This document shows, piece after piece, positions 49,053 to 62,717 of a stretch of 64,000 nucleotides of DNA. Both the position numbers and the translations under genes were made by a program. Source of the DNA: an uncultured Phycisphaerales bacterium (lineage in GTDB: Bacteria > Planctomycetota > Phycisphaerae > Tepidisphaerales > Tepidisphaeraceae). The first letter of the stretch is position 1. Each line of letters begins with the position of its first letter. The DNA lies in assembly GCA_963844715.1 (NCBI GenBank), contig CAWJPJ010000007.1:416001-480000 (forward strand), in the 5' to 3' direction. The notes beneath the pieces are model-generated. The model made no database searches and was not told where the DNA came from. It was given only the letters and a program-made list of their open reading frames with translations.

Positions 49053-50265
49053 ATGCTCGGAATCATGATCCCGGAATTTCCGCTTCAGACGCACATATTT
49101 TTTTGGCGCGAGATCGTGGCGTTGAGGGCGATGGGGGTTCCGGTCGCGATATTGTCGACACGGCGTCCGCCGGAGGGAGCGTGCCGGCATGACTTCGCGC
49201 CGGAGGCGCGAGAGGAGACGCATTATGTTTATCCGCCCTCCGCGTCGTCGACGCTGGGGGCGCTTTTTACGAATCCAAAAGTGCGGCGGGCGCTCGGCTA
49301 TTTGATGAAGTTGAAGGAGACGCCGTTTCGCGAAAAATATCGCGGGCTGGGATTGTTTTTGTGCGCGGCGGACCTGAAGGCATATTCGAAGCGGAAGGGG
49401 ATCGAGCACATTCACGTCCACTCGTGCGCGGATGCGGCGCACGTGGCGGCGATGTGCAACATTCTGGGCGGACCGAGCTATAGCCTGACATTGCATGGGG
49501 ATTTGCCGGTGTATGGCGTGGATCATGCGGCGAAGATGGCGCGGGCGGCGTGTATTACCTGCGACGGGCCGCATTTGAAGGAGCAGATCGTCGAGAAGGT
49601 CGGGTATCCGGCGGAGTCGCATTTTGCCGAATTGGATGGGGTTGGATACGGAGCATTTCTCGCCGGCCTCTGGCGCGAACGGAGAGGCTGGGAAACTCAA
49701 GTTGGCGACGGTGGCGCGATTGGATGCGTGCAAGGGGCATCGATTTGCGATCGGTGCGGTGAGAAAGGCGGTCGATGCGGGAATGGATATACGGTACACG
49801 CTGGCGGGGGAGGGGCCGGAGAGACGGAATATCGAGGAGCTTGTCGCGCGATTAAATTTAACAGATCGCGTGACGCTTCTGGGCACGCGCGGGGAATCGG
49901 AGGTCTTGGAATTGCTGCGAAAATCAGATGCGTTTGTTTTGAGCAGCGTGGGGATGGGGGAGGCCGGGCCGATTTCGCTGATGGAGGCGATGAGTTGTGG
50001 ATTGCCGGCGGTTTGCAGCGTGATCGGGGCGACGCCGCAGATGCTGACGGATGGGGTGGAGGGGATGCTTGTACCGCAGGAGGATGAGGGGAAATTGGCT
50101 GACGCGTTTGTTCGGCTGGCGCACGATCCGGAGTTGCGCAAAACTTTGGGGGCGGCGGCTCGGCGGCGCGCGGTGGCGCAATTCGATAGCGCGGCGACCA
50201 CGCGCCGGATGCTGGAGTTCATCGAGCTTCACACGGGGTTGACGTTTTCGAAGGACAAGTCGTAG
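49053..50265 (+). CDS. GT4 glycosyltransferase (indel at ~49620)
   Basis: PEFPLQTHIFFWRE, HVHSCA, TVARLDACKG, EAGPISLMEAMSCG. Confidence 0.9.
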
Positions 50266-52038
50266 GGGGTCTTGGATTTGATCCAGGCGATCGATCGGGC
50301 AATTTTTCTGGCGTAGGCGACGATGTCGGCGGTTCCGCCGCGGCCGCGGGCGGGCTGGCCGTCCCAGATGGCGATCAGGGCATCGCAATGATCGACGATA
50401 AAGAAACCGGCGCGTTCGTAGGCGGCCTGGCGATCTTCCATCGCGGCGGCGGCAGCGCCGGCGGGGGGTTTGCCGCGCGCGGGTTTTTCGGGGGCGGGTG
50501 GGAAGGCGATGGCGTCGGCGGAATTCAACAGAGATTGGAATCGCGTCAGGTCCGTCGCGTTGAAATCACGGCGGTAGTCGTCGGGTTCGAGAGGTAGGAC
50601 GACGCGCAGGCTGGCGTGTCTGTCCTGCATGGCGGCCTCGGCGACGAGGGAATCGGCGCCGGCGGCGATGGCGGAGAGAGCGATCATTGAGTTTTTGCCG
50701 GCTGACAATCGAGTCATTGCTTCGACGATTTTCGCGCGAATCGCGGGCTCGTCCTCGAGCTTTCGATGGCCGGTGACGCCGATGGTCATGCAATTTACAT
50801 CGGCGAGGGGAGGCGTCGGTTTAAAAAAATCCTTGCCGGAGAGGGTGATGCCAAGGGGAGCGAGATGGCGCTGCGCCTGATCGGTGGCGACTTTGATGTT
50901 TCCCCTGGATTTGGATTGCCCGGCGAAGGCGGCCTGATAGCGCGATCGGGCCGCGGAGAGTTCGCCGGTGAGAAGCTCGGCTTCGGCGAGGGTGACTTCG
51001 TCCCAATAGGAAGCGGCGAGCATTTGCTTGTCGCCGGCCCTGGCGACGGCGTCGACGCGGCGGAGGAGGAGTTGGCGCACTTCGCCGGCGAGGCGGCGGG
51101 AATCGGCGCGCGCGCCGAGCCAGAGGGCGGTGGCGGCGGCGTTGATGCCGAGATAGGCGTTGGAACTCTTGGACCCTTCCCAGCCGCCGAGATAGGCGCG
51201 GTGGCTTTTCTGGAGCATGTCGGCTTCGCCGGCGTCGAGGAAGAGCTGCTTGTAAACGCCGGCGATGATGCCGGCGGTTTCGTCGTCGTCGCGGGTTCGG
51301 GCGAGGAGCGGTCCGGCTTTTTCGACGGCTTTCTTCAGATCGCCGCGGCGCTTCCAGGCGAGAACGGTGAGTTGCTGGATGCGCAGGTCGTCGGGAAATT
51401 TGGCGAAGGCCGGGTCGAGGACGGAGAACGCCAATTCGGTTTCGCCGCGGCAGAGGAGGAGATCGGCGATCACGGCGGCGAGCGTGGCGGCGATCATGTG
51501 GGTCGGTTCAGCATCTCCGGCGGAAAGCTGGGCTACGGGATCGAAATCGGATGCGTCGACGGATTTGAGAAAGAGGGCGAGGCGCAGATCGCCGGCGACG
51601 AGGAGGGGGCTCGAATCGGACGTGATGGCGGGGAGCCTTGAACCGAGGCGGAACTGGCAGAAAAACCAGACGATCCAGCGTTCGGCGAAAAGGGCGGCGA
51701 GGTCGGCATCGGCGGGGGTGTGGTGGCGCAGAATATGGCGCACGTCGTTGCCTAATCGGCGCAGGCCGTTCGCCCAATAAAGCGTTGTGGTCGGGACGAA
51801 ATTAAATTGCGTGAGGGTTTCGAGATTGGCGAAGGCGCGTGGCGCTGGGGGTGATGCCGGCCATTTGGACGGCGGCGGCGCTGAGGACTTCGAGAATTCT
51901 GGCGCTATAGAAGATCGTCGCTTCGGTGGCGCCGATGGAGCGGACCGCGTTGAGATGGGTTAAGTCGGAGGCGAGGCTGTAGCCCTCGGCCTGATAGCCG
52001 GCGACCGGCGCGACCAGGCGGTCCGTGATCAATTCCAT
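50229..52038 (-). CDS. HEPN (DUF4145-like) + TPR-S/TRAF-binding-like + SLOG protein (indel at ~51838)
   Basis: ARILE..LRRLGNDVRH; ETAGIIAGVYK..YLGINAA..YWDEVTLAEA; IGVTGHR..AAGADS..YERAG..IWDG..GRGGTADIV. Confidence 0.75.
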
Positions 52039-52040
52039 GA

Positions 52041-53486
52041 TTACCGCTGCGCGGTGTCGTAATACCCGATGAAATAGAGGAATCGGTTCTGGTTCATCAC
52101 CGGGATGTGATACTCGCGGGCCTTGTCGAGAGTCTCGTCGTACGACTGCTGGTCGGCCTGCTCCTCTTTTTGCCGGCGGACGTAGAACGGGTCCTGCAAT
52201 TGTTCATCGGTGAAATCCTCGACGACGGGTTCGGCGCCCATGACGACGAAATCGGTATCCACGTCGATTTTCTTCTGAATCTTTCCGCCCCAGCGATCGA
52301 TGAGGGCGAGAATCTTGTCGCGATCGCCGTCGGTGGGATGGCCGGTGTGGGCCAGATCGAATCGGCCGTAGACGTAGAAATTGAATTTGTTGTTGCGGTC
52401 GTAAATGAGATTGGCGATGAGATCGCCGGCGGAGATGCTCTTGGTGGGCTGAAGCTGAACGACGCGGCACTGGCTGGAGTCGGCGTCGACGCGCTCGACC
52501 TCGATTGAGCCGAGGCCGGTCGGCATATTGTCCTCGCTCATTCCGTCGCCGAGCTTGGGGATGCCTTCATCGCGGTCATACACCTCGAAGGTCATGCCGG
52601 GGACGATGTGATCGCCCATGCCGAGATTGATGTAGACGATGTCGTCAGAAGCGACTTGAATAATCTGGCCCGCCGTTCGCCGGACGATCGCGTCCTCGAC
52701 AGGGACGCGGCGGCCGGAGAGTTTTTCTTTGGCTTCATCGAGATCCTTATTCAACTGCGCGATTTTTGAATTCAGGTCGGCTTCGGTGGTTTCGTATTTT
52801 TTCAGCTCGGCGTTGAATTCGGTCGTGCGCGTTTCCATCGTCTGGCCGTAATCATTGAGCTGCTTCTCGTATTGATTATTGGCGGCCTGGAGCGAGTCGA
52901 GAGCCTTTTGCTTTTCGTCGTTGGCGTGAGCGACGTCCTCCTGGGCCTTGGTGACCAGCTCCTGGGCGTGGGTGATCTGCTGGGCGGCGTCGGCCGCGGC
53001 GGAATCCTGTCCCTTGCGGGCGCTGTCGGCCTGCTGCTGCTGGCTTGCCGCATAGTCCGTCAGAGCGCCGATCGCGCCAACCAGATCAGGCGGCAGAGTA
53101 ATTCCGTTGAGCTTGGCGCTGGCGGCGGCAAGGGCCGCGGTGGCTTTATCAATTGCGGCGGTGGGCTGGGCGACTGTGGTCGCGTCCTTACCCACGATCG
53201 CATCGGATAGGTCTTCCGATTCCTGCATTGAGGCGGCCAGGACCGTATGCTCGCGCAGCTTTGGGTTGCTGTCCTTGTCCCTGAGCAATGCCACAACGTG
53301 GGGGCTGGTGGTGTCCTCAACGTAGGATCGCATGCGATCCTGGGCGGTCTTATAGAGTTCTTCCTCCTTGGACAGAGCGACGCCGTAGTAGATGGCGAGG
53401 ATGGTCGCCAGGACGAAGCCGATAGTGAAAACCACGACCGCGGTGATGAGACCGCCTCGTGAGCCTTGTGGGCTTACGGGTGGCAT
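52041..53486 (-). CDS. Membrane-anchored coiled-coil protein with beta domain and C-terminal BRCT-like domain
   Basis: N-terminal TM, long coiled-coil, VYINLG..GMTFEVYD, WGGKIQKKIDVDTDFVVMG, IPVMNQNRFL. Confidence 0.7.
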   Translation of the reverse strand: MPPVSPQGSRGGLITAVVVFTIGFVLATILAIYYGVALSKEEELYKTAQDRMRSYVEDTTSPHVVALLRDKDSNPKLREHTVLAASMQESEDLSDAIVGKDATTVAQPTAAIDKATAALAAASAKLNGITLPPDLVGAIGALTDYAASQQQQADSARKGQDSAAADAAQQITHAQELVTKAQEDVAHANDEKQKALDSLQAANNQYEKQLNDYGQTMETRTTEFNAELKKYETTEADLNSKIAQLNKDLDEAKEKLSGRRVPVEDAIVRRTAGQIIQVASDDIVYINLGMGDHIVPGMTFEVYDRDEGIPKLGDGMSEDNMPTGLGSIEVERVDADSSQCRVVQLQPTKSISAGDLIANLIYDRNNKFNFYVYGRFDLAHTGHPTDGDRDKILALIDRWGGKIQKKIDVDTDFVVMGAEPVVEDFTDEQLQDPFYVRRQKEEQADQQSYDETLDKAREYHIPVMNQNRFLYFIGYYDTAQR

Positions 53487-56201: not shown

Positions 56202-58952
56202 GTGTCCAAAACGTTTTATATCATCGACGGTCATGCCCAGATTTACCGGGCCTATTTCGCGCCGTTTCGTGACTTATCGACGGCATCGGGGGAGCCGACG
56301 AAGGCGACCTACGTTTTCACGCAATGGCTGATGAATCTGGCCGAGACGCGAAAGCCGGATTATCTTGCCATGGCGATTGATTCGGGGGATGGGGCGGTAT
56401 TTCGGCGCAAGATATTCAAGGATTACAAGCAGAACCGGACGCCCCCGCCGGATGATTTTTTCCCGCAGGAGCGGCGGATTTTGCAGATCGTGGGGGACCT
56501 GGGGATTCCGATTTTTGCGCAGGTTGGATTCGAGGCGGACGATCTGATCGCCACGATGGTGAAGCGCCTGGCCGACGAGGACGTGGAGATTGCGCTGATC
56601 TCCAAGGACAAGGACCTGCGGCAGCTCATCGGGCCGCGGGTGCGGATGTACGATTTGCAGACGGACGCGTTTATCGACGCCAAGGCGATGCGCGAGAAAT
56701 GCGGGTTTGGCCCGGAACAATCGATCGAAGTGCAGACGCTGATGGGGGACGCGATCGATAACGTGCAGGGAATTCCCGGGGTCGGAGAAAAGACGGCGGC
56801 GAAGCTGATTTCGACTTATGGAACGGTCGAGAATCTGCTGCAGCATACGGCAGATTTGACGCCCAAGCTGAAGGAGAATCTGGAAACGTACGCCGATCGA
56901 TTGCCGATTTCGCGGCAACTGGTGACGCTGAAGAACGACGTGGAGATGGATTTCGATGCGGAAAAATGCGCGTTTCGCGGATTGAATGCGGCGGCGCTGC
57001 GGCCGCATTTGGAGCAGCTTGGATTTACGAGCCTGGTGAAGCGCTGGGGACGGCCGGAGTTCAGGCGGCGCCTGCGCCGGAGCAGGGTTTATTCGGGAAG
57101 ATGGACGAGGCGGCGCCGGCGGCGACGATTCACACTTCGCAGGATTGCGACTATCGGCTGGTGGATACGCCGGAGAAATTCAAATCCTTTCTGGCGGAGC
57201 TTAAGAAGCAGAAGCGGTTTGCGTTTGACACCGAGACCAATGCGCTGGGGGCGATGGCGTCGGATTTGATTGGGATGAGTTTTTCGTGGAAGCATGGGAC
57301 GGGATGGTACGTGCCGGTGCGCGGGCCGACGGGGTCGTCGCATTTGAGTCCAGAGGATGCGATTAAGGGGCTGCGGCCGATTCTGGAAGACGCGGGGGTG
57401 AAAAAAGTCGGGCACAATCTGAAATATGATCTTCTGGTGATGCGCGAGGCGGGGGTGAATGTGCGCGGGGTGGAACTGGACAGCATGATCGGGGCGTTTT
57501 TGCTCGACCCGAGCCGCATGCAATATGGGATTGACCGGCTGGCTTTGGAGTTTCTCAATTTTAGAAAAATACCCACGAGCGAATTGATCGGGTCGGGGAA
57601 ATCGCAGATTTCGATGGAGACGGTGGATTTGGCGAAAGTCGCGACGTACGCCGCGGAAGATGCGGATATTGCGATGCGATTGGCGGATTTGCTTTTGGAA
57701 AAGCTCAACGCGATTCCGACTTTGAAGAAGCTATGCGATGAACTGGAGACGCCGCTGATCGATGTGCTGGTGGAGATGGAAGGGAACGGGGTCGCGATCG
57801 ATCCTGCGATTTTGAAGGAACAAAGCGCGGTATTGGCGAGCGCGGATCGAGGAGCTGCGCGCGAAGATCATCGAGACGGCGGGGGCGGAATTCAATCCGG
57901 ATTCGCCGAAGCAACTTCAGGAGATTTTGTTCAATCGGCTGGGGCTACCGATCATTAAGCGGACCAAGACGGGGGCGAGCACGGATGTGGAGGTACTGGA
58001 GAAGCTGGCGGACAAGCACGCGACGCCGCGATTGATTTTGGAATATCGCGGGCTGTGCAAGCTGAAGAATACCTATCTGGATAATCTGACCGATTTTGTG
58101 AACGCGCGCACGGGGCGGATTCATGCCAGTTTCAACCAGATTGGGGCGGCGACGGGGCGACTGAGCTGTAGCGATCCGAATTTGCAGAACATCCCGATCC
58201 GCACGGATGAGGGGCGGCGGATTCGGCTCGCGTTTGTGCCGGGGGACCGGGAAAAGAACGTGCTGCTGACGGCGGATTACAGCCAGATCGAGCTGCGCAT
58301 CCTGGCGCATTTCACGCAGGAGCCGGCGCTGCTGGCGGCGTTCGCGGCGGATGAGGACATTCACCGGGCGGTAGCGGCGGAAGTGTTCGGCGTGGCGCTG
58401 GAAAAGGTCACGCGCGAGCAACGCGGGCAGGCGAAGACGATCAACTTCGGCATCATTTATGGCGTCACAGCGTATGGATTGGCGCGGCGGATCGAACAAC
58501 TCAGCGTTCAGTCGGCGCAGGAATTGATCAACGCTTATAACAAGCGATTTCCGTCCATTCAGAAATTTCTGGATCAGTGCGTGATGGAGGCGCAGTCGCA
58601 GGGGTACGTCGAGACGATACTGGGGCGGCGGCGGCCGATTCCGGAGATCAATGCGCATGTCGTCTCGGTGCGGAACGCGGGGGAGCGGATGGCGATTAAC
58701 AGCGTGGTGCAGGGGTCGGCGGCGGATTTGATCAAGGCGTCGATGAATCGAATTTATCGGCGATTGAAGGAAGAGAAGCGGCCTAGCCGGCTTTTGATGC
58801 AGGTGCATGATGAATTGGTTTTCGAGACACCGGCGGGGGCGGTGGAGGAAGAGGCGGAGATGGTGCGGGGGGAGATGACGAGTGCGCTGAAATTGTCGGT
58901 GCCGCTGAAGGTGGATATTGGGTGGGGGAAGAATTGGCAGGAAGTGAAATGA
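56202..58952 (+). CDS. polA: DNA polymerase I (indels at ~57048 and ~57840)
   Basis: 5'-3' exo FEADD, GIPGVGEKTA; 3'-5' exo FDTET, HNLKYD, YAAEDAD; pol ADYSQIELR, KTINFGIIYG, QVHDEL. Confidence 0.97.
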
Positions 58953-61027: not shown

Positions 61028-61127
61028 GATTAAACAGGGACGCATCTAGTTGTTGACGATCGGCGTGTTCGGCGAGAGATTAAACCGGGACGCAGCTAGT
61101 TGTTGACGATCGGCGTATTCGGCGATA
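61028..61127 (+). repeat. Two tandem 50-bp units upstream of the RAYT-like gene, each with the IR motif
   Basis: 61028-61077 versus 61078-61127, 4 mismatches. Confidence 0.9.
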
Positions 61128-61138
61128 GGGTGGCGGCG

Positions 61139-61824
61139 ATGCCGCGTGGGAATCGGATTACGCCTGGGGGGTGGGTATATCACGTTCTGAATCGTTCAGC
61201 GGGGCGGATCGATTTGTTTGGGCGTGAGGCGGATTTCGCGGCGTTTGAGCGGGTGTTGATTGAGGCGCAGCAACGCCATCCACTGCGTCTGTTGAGTTAT
61301 TGTGTGATGTCGAATCACTGGCACTTCGTGGTTTGGCCGCAAACGGATCGGCAGGTGACGGATTTCTTTCGCTGGCTGACGCAGACGCACGCGATGCGCT
61401 GGCGGGTGTCGCACCGGACCGTGGGGTACGGCCATGTTTATCAAGGCCGATTTAAGAGCTTTCCCGTGCAGCAGGATTTTTACCTGCTGACGCTTTGCCG
61501 GTATGTGGAGCGCAATGCGCTGGCGGCTGGTCTGGTGGATCGGGCGGAGAAGTGGCGATGGTCCAGTCTCTGGACGCGTCTGAACGGCGACGAGAAGCAA
61601 AAGGCTTTGTTGTCGACGTGGCCGCTGGAGCCGCCGCGGAATTGGATCGAACTGGTGAATCGTCTGCTGGGGGAAAGCGACGTTAAGTCGGTTGAGGCGA
61701 GCCTTGAGCGCGACCGCCCGCTGGGCACGGTTGCGTGGATCGGCGCAGTGCGCGAAAGCTCGGGCTGGAACACACAACTCGGCGTGAGGGCCGACCAAAT
61801 AAGCGGCCGACCCGTACGCGATAA
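61139..61824 (+). CDS. REP-associated-type tyrosine (Y1/HUH) transposase (probable indel at ~61750)
   Basis: MPR..YHVLNR, YCVMSNHWH, QGRFKS, YVERN, AGLV..WRWSS; corrected tail RKLGLEHTTRREGRP ends at TAA 61822-61824. Confidence 0.88.
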
Positions 61825-62654
61825 CTAGGGCCTGTCTGATGAATCCAAAATCCTGAAATAGCGACGGATCATGGCGAGCTTGGCCATGGCCTGAAAGTTC
61901 ACCGCCAGTTTCTCGTAACGCGTGCCCAGGCGGCGATTCTCCTTCATCCAATTCACGCAACGCTCCACCACGTTCCGTCGGCGATACGCCTTGCGATCAA
62001 AGTTCTCCTGCGGCGGCTGATTCGATTTCGCCGGGATCACCGCTTGGATTCGGTGGCGACGCAGCCATCGCCGCACATTTCCGTAACTGTATCCCTTGTC
62101 GCCCGCCAGCCTCCTGGGGCGACGACGGCGGCGACCGATGCGCATCGCGTTCATCACCGGCTCCACGTACCGGCTCTCGTGGCATTGGCCGGCGCTGGCC
62201 TCGACGGCGAGCGGAACTCCCTGGCCGTCAGTAACCAGGTGGAGCTTGCTGCCCCACCCGCCTCGGCTGCGGCCCAACGCGTGATCCGCCGGTTCTTCCG
62301 GGGCGGTTTTGATTTTCTGGCTCCGGCGGCGGATCGACTGGCTCGCACATTGGTGCCGTCGATGCACCACAGGTCCCAGTCGATTCGTCCTTGCTTGTCC
62401 AACCTCATCTGCAGCCGCTGGAGGATTCGATCAATCGTTCCGTCCTTTCTCCAGCGGTTGAAGCGGTCGTAGACGCTTTGCCATCTGCCGTAACGTTCGG
62501 GCATCTCGCGCCATTGAGCGCCCGAGTGCAGAATCCAGAACATGCCGTTGAGCGTGGTGCGGTGGTCGTTCCACTGCCCGCCGCGCTTGCCGTTGCCGGG
62601 CAGCAGATCGCCGATCAACTCGTACTGCTCATCCGTGAGCTCATAACGTCGCAT
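61825..62654 (-). CDS. IS5-family transposase, two overlapping frames
   Basis: ORFs 62154-62663 and 61825-62370; the second part is uninterrupted in this copy. Confidence 0.92.
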
Positions 62655-62717
62655 CCGTGACACCTCGTCTGAAAACCGCTATTTATAACCAAAAGCGATT
62701 CATCAGACAGGCCCTAG
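61825..62717 (-). mobile_element. IS5-family insertion sequence, copy 2, including flanking CTAG
   Basis: Reverse complement of copy 1 minus one T; CTAG at 61825-61828 and 62714-62717. Confidence 0.95.

Follow-up and report, generated by a model that had tools for sequence, protein, structure and literature searches.

A HEPN, TPR-S and SLOG fusion protein of a Tepidisphaeraceae bacterium as a candidate ligand-gated RNase effector

Introduction

Type VIII Thoeris, which combines a hydrolase with a TPR domain, is reported to be activated by cyclic ADP-ribose (cADPR), which its TPR presumably senses; SLATT effectors are reported to respond to the same signal (bioRxiv 10.64898/2025.12.03.692087). 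BcTpr binds cADPR with a dissociation constant of 1.9 uM, and the same account, citing Burroughs and Aravind 2020, describes TPR-S conflict systems in which a TPR scaffold is linked to TIR, YpsA-type SLOG and patatin (bioRxiv 10.1101/2023.05.26.542521). RAZR, a proven DUF4145 ribonuclease (RNase), carries a zinc finger for assembly on phage ring proteins and a pair of residues, R146 and H154, separated by seven others; substituting either abolished defence (PMC13017515). Here we analysed a single gene on the minus strand (50229..52038) of a 64,000-nucleotide stretch of DNA, referred to as the window, from an uncultured Phycisphaerales bacterium of the Tepidisphaeraceae (GCA_963844715.1, contig CAWJPJ010000007.1, positions 416,001 to 480,000). 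The gene encodes a fusion of HEPN, TPR-S and YpsA-like SLOG domains, and with a probability of roughly 0.55 we regard its product as a ligand-gated RNase effector of immunity driven by a signal derived from nicotinamide adenine dinucleotide (NAD), in which a TIR-derived ADP-ribose (ADPR)-type signal would be produced in trans; in this it would resemble type VIII Thoeris. The domains, residues, distribution and context were computed, and from them we infer every functional step.

Comparison with described systems

The window protein shares with type VIII Thoeris ThsI and BcTpr the placement of an enzyme domain ahead of a TPR linked to TIR signalling; its relatives co-occur with TIR and SLATT, and 11 of its TPR positions are shared with DUF4071-type proteins, which we presume to be of the same kind. 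The enzyme of ThsI/BcTpr is a cytidine monophosphate (CMP)-hydrolase/glycosidase, whereas the window protein has a predicted HEPN RNase, an extra C-terminal SLOG and a pocket in which an Arg is replaced. BcTir/Tpr has its TIR in the same operon, whereas none lies within ~8-10 kb of the window gene. By analogy, the window protein may work like ThsI/BcTpr with an RNase replacing the hydrolase. The hydrolase domain of type VIII Thoeris was not found, the N-terminus being HEPN and PF13281 matching at profile positions 170-319 only. With no SIR2, no hydrolase and no linked TIR, membership of types I and VIII Thoeris was rejected.

The features shared with RAZR/PD-T7-4 are a DUF4145-type HEPN, the R-x7-H spacing and a composite dimer site, which in the window protein is modelled; the window protein differs in having TPR-S and SLOG instead of a zinc finger, and an invariant Arg directly before the His. 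Type I Thoeris ThsA (SIR2-SLOG) likewise places an effector and a SLOG in a single chain, but the effector here is HEPN rather than SIR2, and the SLOG is YpsA-like and optional among the relatives. TIR, SLOG and patatin neighbours, as known from the TPR-S conflict systems, also surround relatives of the window protein; HEPN is not mentioned where bioRxiv 10.1101/2023.05.26.542521 describes those systems. The best TPR match, the central regulatory region of ASK1 (MAP3K5), belongs to a eukaryotic kinase regulator without RNase.

The original prediction, made from the DNA letters, did not recognise a named system, and the profile searches agreed: none of 52 relatives matched PADLOC 2.0 (2023 library) at E<=0.001, and neither of the two window pieces matched PADLOC or NCBIfam. 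We did not find the HEPN+TPR-S(+SLOG) fusion described in the literature, where Burroughs 2015 and Burroughs and Aravind 2020 may list it. The 29 putative Thoeris types reported in bioRxiv 10.64898/2025.12.03.692087 include unnamed RNases, and the fusion may be among them.

Reconstruction of the gene and its domains

The features of the gene are as follows.

50229..52038, minus strand: whole gene, ~602 residues, HEPN (DUF4145-like) + TPR-S + YpsA-like SLOG, two frames joined with intact relatives as guide
51630..51999, minus strand: HEPN domain, P0003 residues 14-136, spanning the break (structure match to 2hsb, DUF4145 profile)
51898..51900, minus strand: Arg47 of YSARILE, invariant among relatives, at the modelled dimer interface
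51839: extra base shifting the frame, missing from one short-read contig and both congeners
51735..51761, minus strand: predicted catalytic motif R93-x3-N97-x2-R100-H101 (R-x7-H), from residue conservation and RAZR spacing
50820..51584, minus strand: TPR-S / ASK1-type TPR, P0003 residues 152-406, proposed ligand sensor (Pfam, structure match)
50259..50795, minus strand: YpsA-like SLOG, with GVTGHR at 50780-50763 and GAD at 50660-50652 (structure match); accessory in HEPN+TPR-S relatives

The span from 52038 to 50229 comprises 1810 nucleotides, that is, whole codons plus one base. Frame 1 reads M...YSARILE...ITPSAT (N-terminal ~65 residues) and frame 2 reads AFANLETL...LRRLGNDVRH...NVNPV (~537 residues). 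Both frames align to a single intact metagenome protein of 601 residues, P0003 (80% over residues 1-70 and 81% over residues 63-601), which bears out the proposal that the two open reading frames join into one protein of ~600 residues across a single indel. The closest relatives, among them congener proteins labelled Tepidisphaeraceae, are intact, 601-626 residues long and 67-82% identical (word-based search; 84 relatives among 8000 candidates scored). All motifs quoted in the original prediction were recovered (YSARILE, ETAG..GVYK, YLGINAA, YW...TLAEA, GVTGHR, AGAD and IWDG..GRGGT), and LRRLGNDVRH lies at 51764-51735, as it had been placed.

The read comparison also agreed with the postulated indel. 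A short-read contig of 163 nucleotides (run X2, 51759-51922, depth 3.5) has one base fewer at 51839; it is the sole spanning piece among the matches listed (four runs, all from one study), and a lone contig below depth 5 may be in error. Both congeners are one base shorter at the same point. Frameshifts affect 3 of 8 valid gene comparisons within the window: polA (56202-58952) is broken by two and a glycosyltransferase gene (49053-50265) by one, so the split genes of this assembly are to be doubted. Judged from these sequence comparisons, the break at 51839 is most likely an assembly error and the gene intact. A true pseudogene in this strain is exceedingly improbable: the break does stand in the assembly and the read evidence is one low-depth contig, but that contig and both congeners lack the extra base, and polA, an essential gene, carries two breaks within the window too. 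P0014, a 99%-identical protein of a different assembly, has frame breaks at other positions, which fits error-prone assemblies.

Structures were predicted from natural sequences, mainly those of intact homologues, and residue numbers are those of P0003. The full-length AlphaFold2 model, based on a 52-row alignment, is compact, with a predicted local distance difference test (pLDDT) score of 92.4 and a predicted template modelling (pTM) score of 0.91. The original prediction had proposed three domains, HEPN, TPR-S and SLOG, and each was recovered. The HEPN region matches 2hsb (Z 12.7, root mean square deviation [RMSD] 2.3, 117 aligned), as well as 1ufb, 1wol and 3o10, in agreement with the expected HEPN fold. 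Pfam DUF4145 scores 16.2 bits for the window fragment and 18.5 for P0003, both below the cut-off of 23.1, which some relatives pass (P0115 with 30.2 and P0142 with 24.8 bits); the family matches at E<=0.01 in 41 of 51 relatives' HEPN domains, at best with 1.6e-8. Pfam TPR-S (PF20308) matches at 1.9e-13 (51.3 bits against a cut-off of 27.6) and MAP3K_TRAF_bd at 1.3e-5, and the best structural match of this region is the ASK1 central regulatory region 5ulm (Z 16.9, RMSD 2.8, 234 aligned).

Residues 414-592 match YpsA with Z 16.3 in the full-length model. Folded alone, the window SLOG matches YpsA 2nx2 with Z 16.6 (RMSD 3.0, 156 aligned) and DprA with Z 12.7, while the ThsA SLOG 7uxs ranks 22nd with Z 6.4. 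Its GxD motif (G459/D461) is conserved, with D461 in 32 of 33 sequences, and the domain aligns at 29-34% to the SLOG of SLOG-SLATT membrane proteins encoded beside SLOG-less relatives. The Pfam SLOG families gave no match of note, YAcAr being weak in 7 of 23. SIR2 was not found by Pfam, and the HEPN, TPR and SLOG folds account for the whole chain. A sequence search of solved structures returned generic TPRs only, ESM Atlas gave TPR-S clusters scoring under 0.9, which serve as a lead only, and whole-model Foldseek was swamped by TPR proteins.

A conserved putative RNase site in a modelled HEPN dimer

We collected 207 proteins and used the 166 with near-complete HEPN and TPR-S for residue counts. 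R47, R100 and H101 occur in all 166, N97 in 165, R93 in 164 and R94 in 138. The spacing from R93 to H101 is x7, equal to that of R146/H154 in RAZR and outside the classical HEPN motif, R-x4-6-H (PMC3710099). The R-x4-6-H motif of the original prediction needs amending: its catalytic Arg and His are conserved, but the Arg that is strongly kept is R93 at x7 (164/166), the x6 Arg, R94, being kept in 138/166. The HEPN catalytic motif is intact, and RNase activity is predicted.

The original prediction expected a HEPN dimer, and such a homodimer was modelled for residues 1-410 of P0003, formed through HEPN, with a score of 0.55 against 0.00 for the best control. The dimer runs gave contact agreement of at least 95% and pLDDT of at least 86, and 20 of 30 solved homodimers attained the same mark, as did 1 of 23 monomers. 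The modelled interface holds R47, R100 and H101 together with TPR-S residues 250 and 288. HEPN dimers being textbook knowledge, resemblance to those already solved may account for the pass.

TPR-S as the likelier switch

The SLOG is present in 63 of the 166 relatives and absent from 103, so that HEPN+TPR-S forms the constant core. Since 93 of the 103 SLOG-less proteins fall within 380-445 residues, they are unlikely to be random fragments. On a FastTree phylogeny of 165 cores (the frameshifted P0015 left out; P0142 and P0169 relabelled SLOG-bearing by eye), SLOG presence requires 25 changes, at least 7 of them being forced by well-supported branches. The domain order is permuted in P0197, which reads SLOG-HEPN-TPR-S. 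A polar and aromatic TPR-S pocket is conserved in SLOG-bearing and SLOG-less relatives alike, and 11 TPR-S positions (R230, E253, G256, K263, Y282, Y295, G297, N299, W345, T349 and E352) are the same in all 8 TPR-S stretches taken from DUF4071 (PF13281) loci.

Because TPR-S is obligate with a conserved pocket while the SLOG is optional and far from that of ThsA, these comparisons make TPR-S the likelier switch, with the ligand uncertain. The original prediction had drawn on ThsA, an analogy by which the SLOG would be the gate; it is not supported for a domain absent in 103/166, repeatedly gained or lost, and closer to YpsA (Z 16.6) than to ThsA (6.4). It is quite unlikely that the SLOG acts as the gating sensor as in Thoeris ThsA, with TPR-S merely relaying the change to HEPN: the SLOG motifs are conserved, the full-length model is compact (pTM 0.91) and YpsA-like SLOGs have been described as sensors of cADPR variants (PMC9503650), but the relatives without SLOG, 93 of them within the narrow length range above, retain both the HEPN site and the TPR-S pocket, and the ThsA SLOG is distant.

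The TPR-S might instead read a protein, either a phage protein or a partner STAND/TIR, with assembly activating HEPN as in RAZR. RAZR, as a DUF4145 RNase, is activated by phage proteins (PMC13017515), BcTpr works in a complex with BcTir (bioRxiv 10.1101/2023.05.26.542521), the pocket lacks the DUF4071 Arg, and FHA-trypsin and kinase genes are frequent neighbours of the relatives. Nevertheless, HEPN and TPR-S show good conservation inside the genus, and invariant residues of polar and aromatic character, common to nucleotide-linked TPR-S proteins, suit a small ligand, so we judge a protein trigger distinctly unlikely.

Genomic neighbourhoods of the relatives

Pfam scans of selected neighbours of the relatives identified TIR-NB-ARC-TPR, DUF4062-STAND, SIR2-TIR, SLATT, patatin and RyR, and further TPR-S-cyclase, Cas_NE0113, FHA-trypsin and kinase genes. 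In a tally of loci whose flanks total at least 8 kb (10 duplicate or truncated loci, 2 more truncated ones and all shorter ones dropped), the SLOG-less loci carried TIR/DUF4062 in 14/28, SLATT in 14/28, STAND in 16/28 and any of these in 19/28 within ~8 kb, against 2/10 of the SLOG-fused loci; the same neighbour profiles match 4 of 289 16-kb tiles of the present genome. The profiles were built from the same loci and kin are not independent (three fused loci are of one genus and seven SLOG-less loci of one operon type), so the p=0.023 of the fused versus SLOG-less contrast is overstated. Fused forms beside TIR or DUF4062 do exist (L099, L053 and the short, excluded L016, with TIR). The conflict-system context that the original prediction had suggested is thus seen for the relatives, at 19/28 SLOG-less loci; its description of a self-contained sensor-effector gains no support, since SLOG-less relatives usually adjoin TIR, STAND or SLATT genes.

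Two related proposals give the SLOG an enzymatic role. According to the first, the protein is a complete immune circuit in one polypeptide, in which the SLOG would make or destroy an NAD-derived messenger in cis, the TPR would read it and the HEPN dimer would cut RNA, without need of a TIR; we regard this as a minor possibility, on the unlikely side. The second, that a YpsA-like SLOG makes the NAD-derived signal in cis for TPR-S and so replaces the TIR gene, is unlikely. The 2/10 against 19/28 contrast speaks for it, as does the retained GxD motif (D461 in 32/33), which in YpsA is predicted to bind substrate (PMC6459960). ADPR-derived signals are a predicted product of some SLOGs (PMC9503650), and SLOGs of the same type as here are fused to SLATT, a further effector type that responds to cADPR. 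The contrast, however, is overstated and fused forms also stand beside TIR or DUF4062; SLOG-SLATT genes co-occur with TIR-STAND genes, where a generator would be redundant; and a part that senses the trigger is not evident.

One operon recurs with TIR-STAND-TPR (TIR-NB-ARC-TPR), a gene of 166-231 residues, SLOG-SLATT and HEPN-TPR-S (L026, L028, L029, L075 and L076; e.g. L029:1386-9278), with a Cas_NE0113-like gene upstream in L028; ESM Atlas returned nothing named for its small gene. This operon would be a complete candidate system and a better test case than the orphan gene. In a second recurring context (L019, L020, L023, L030, L067 and L101), SLOG-less HEPN-TPR-S lies beside FHA/trypsin-like protease genes, often with TPR-kinase genes near. 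RyR domains are fused at either end (P0031, P0034, P0132, P0142, P0162, P0137 and P0210) or encoded just upstream (L015 and L063). DUF4071 genes are paired with a second TPR-S protein in L106, L108, L110 and L112, which is alpha/beta-hydrolase-like in L106 and L108 and patatin in L112; L108 also holds a TIR gene.

Locus and distribution within the genus

Two genes flank the fusion gene.

52041..53486, minus strand: upstream core gene, 481 residues, coiled-coil, ending 2 nucleotides before the start; not a defence partner
49053..50265, plus strand: convergent glycosyltransferase gene, frameshifted, at the edge of a polysaccharide cluster; context only

The upstream gene is probably co-transcribed with the HEPN-TPR-S-SLOG gene. 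Its coiled-coil product has a hydrophobic N-terminus and no confident family, and it occurs in 38 of 41 relatives as a class-wide core gene; its PADLOC matches, like those to NCBIfam, were weak coiled-coil matches and were rejected. The fusion gene stands alone between housekeeping and polysaccharide genes and is present in all three genomes of the genus, with the same gene order in G001 and the polysaccharide side kept in G002, where the core gene is on another contig. In G072 the same core gene lies upstream, separated from the gene by mscL, and in G019 a polysaccharide ABC gene follows the core gene directly, with nothing inserted. Just upstream of the gene in G002 (L010:11928-12168) is a fragment that we take to be transposase-like, and the window open reading frames at 61100-61828 and 61825-62663 (61100-62663) are presumably transposases of REP-associated type and IS5-like, respectively. 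A promoter and terminator scan gave results at chance level, and the listing named no RNA holder.

The HEPN+TPR-S part occurs in 4 of 141 genomes of the taxonomic family, three of them this genus, and in 4 of the 400 further genomes sampled from the phylum; the 38/41 tally includes the unpublished genome G004, and the 4/141 and 4/400 tallies possibly do so too, but none of the claims depends on the sequence of G004. We conclude that the gene is rare and has been kept by vertical descent within a single subclade; this is not usual for a defence gene, but it does not disqualify it. It could also be a domesticated stress or dormancy regulator that trims RNA according to NAD or redox state rather than phage. 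Its presence in 3/3 genomes of the genus at the edge of the polysaccharide cluster, with the same core gene upstream in G072, agrees with such a role, and B. subtilis YpsA has acquired a non-immune role (PMC6459960). Yet the HEPN+TPR-S part is confined to 4/141 genomes of the family, G019 has no insert between the core gene and the ABC gene, and the context of the wider relatives is of conflict type; domestication is accordingly very unlikely.

As the original prediction noted, no TIR or cyclase gene is adjacent in the window (locus L011), and DUF4062 did not turn up in this genome, which is 85% complete. Five TIR_2 matches lie elsewhere in the genome. One TIR clade occurs in 3/3 genomes of the genus, 72-89% identical among them and 47-61% identical to the TIRs beside relatives in L058 and L099, and by sequence it is a candidate trans partner. 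Three TIR genes belonging to one clade lie at G000:C8:675649-676992, C8:209397-210305 and C8:191186-191995; the first encodes a predicted membrane segment and a repeat domain, and the other two look frameshifted after the TIR.

Discussion

In the mechanism that we favour, a TIR enzyme encoded elsewhere would make an ADPR derivative (cADPR-like) upon infection or stress, and this ADPR-type ligand would bind the conserved TPR-S pocket. The bound ligand would rearrange the HEPN dimer, whose R/H site would then cut cellular RNA and bring growth to a halt, while the SLOG add-on would tune the response, either through breakdown or conversion of the signal or as a second input. We favour it because the catalytic residues are near-invariant in the 166 relatives and show RAZR spacing, because a HEPN dimer was modelled with TPR-S obligate and the SLOG optional, because the 11 TPR-S positions are shared with the DUF4071 type and cADPR-linked TPR effectors are known, and because SLOG-less relatives adjoin TIR/DUF4062 and SLATT while the genus shares one TIR clade.

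Several observations weigh against the trans-signalled effector. Position 260 here has G/A/S where the DUF4071 type has a conserved Arg, and R219/Q222 occur specifically in HEPN+TPR-S relatives, so the TPR-S ligand may differ from the DUF4071 type. The relation of ThsI/BcTpr TPRs to Pfam TPR-S is our own assignment, ThsI being compared by description only. No TIR, SLATT or STAND gene lies within ~8-10 kb here (L011) or at the congener loci, and the TIR clade of the genus may simply be common. Within the genus the gene keeps its place among housekeeping and polysaccharide genes, and a search of phages, plasmids and viral contigs returned no relative with HEPN or TPR-S (two plasmid matches were SLOG-only). 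The neighbour profiles derive from the very loci tallied, whose kin are not independent. Finally, many neighbouring TIRs of the relatives sit on STAND-TPR proteins, a class discarded as likely NAD-depleting effectors in bioRxiv 10.64898/2025.12.03.692087; such TIRs may be effectors instead of making a signal, so their co-location may merely reflect defence islands.

That the TPR-S/ASK1 scaffold senses cADPR-type signals has so far been a presumption, and the literature consulted defines no biochemistry for YpsA-clade SLOGs. The relatives pair TPR-S and SLOG with an RNase read-out, naturally with (63) and without (103) the SLOG, which makes the role of each domain testable. If the one-polypeptide circuit were true, YpsA-clade SLOGs would be enzymatic and the ASK1 TPR scaffold would gate an RNase, possibly by a new ligand, because the pocket differs from the cADPR-linked type. 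The link between animal ASK1 and cADPR is reported as genetic (PMC13455253). If the TIR-signalled effector is correct, an RNase output would join TIR-derived signalling, and the finding would bear on the response of animal ASK1 to cADPR.

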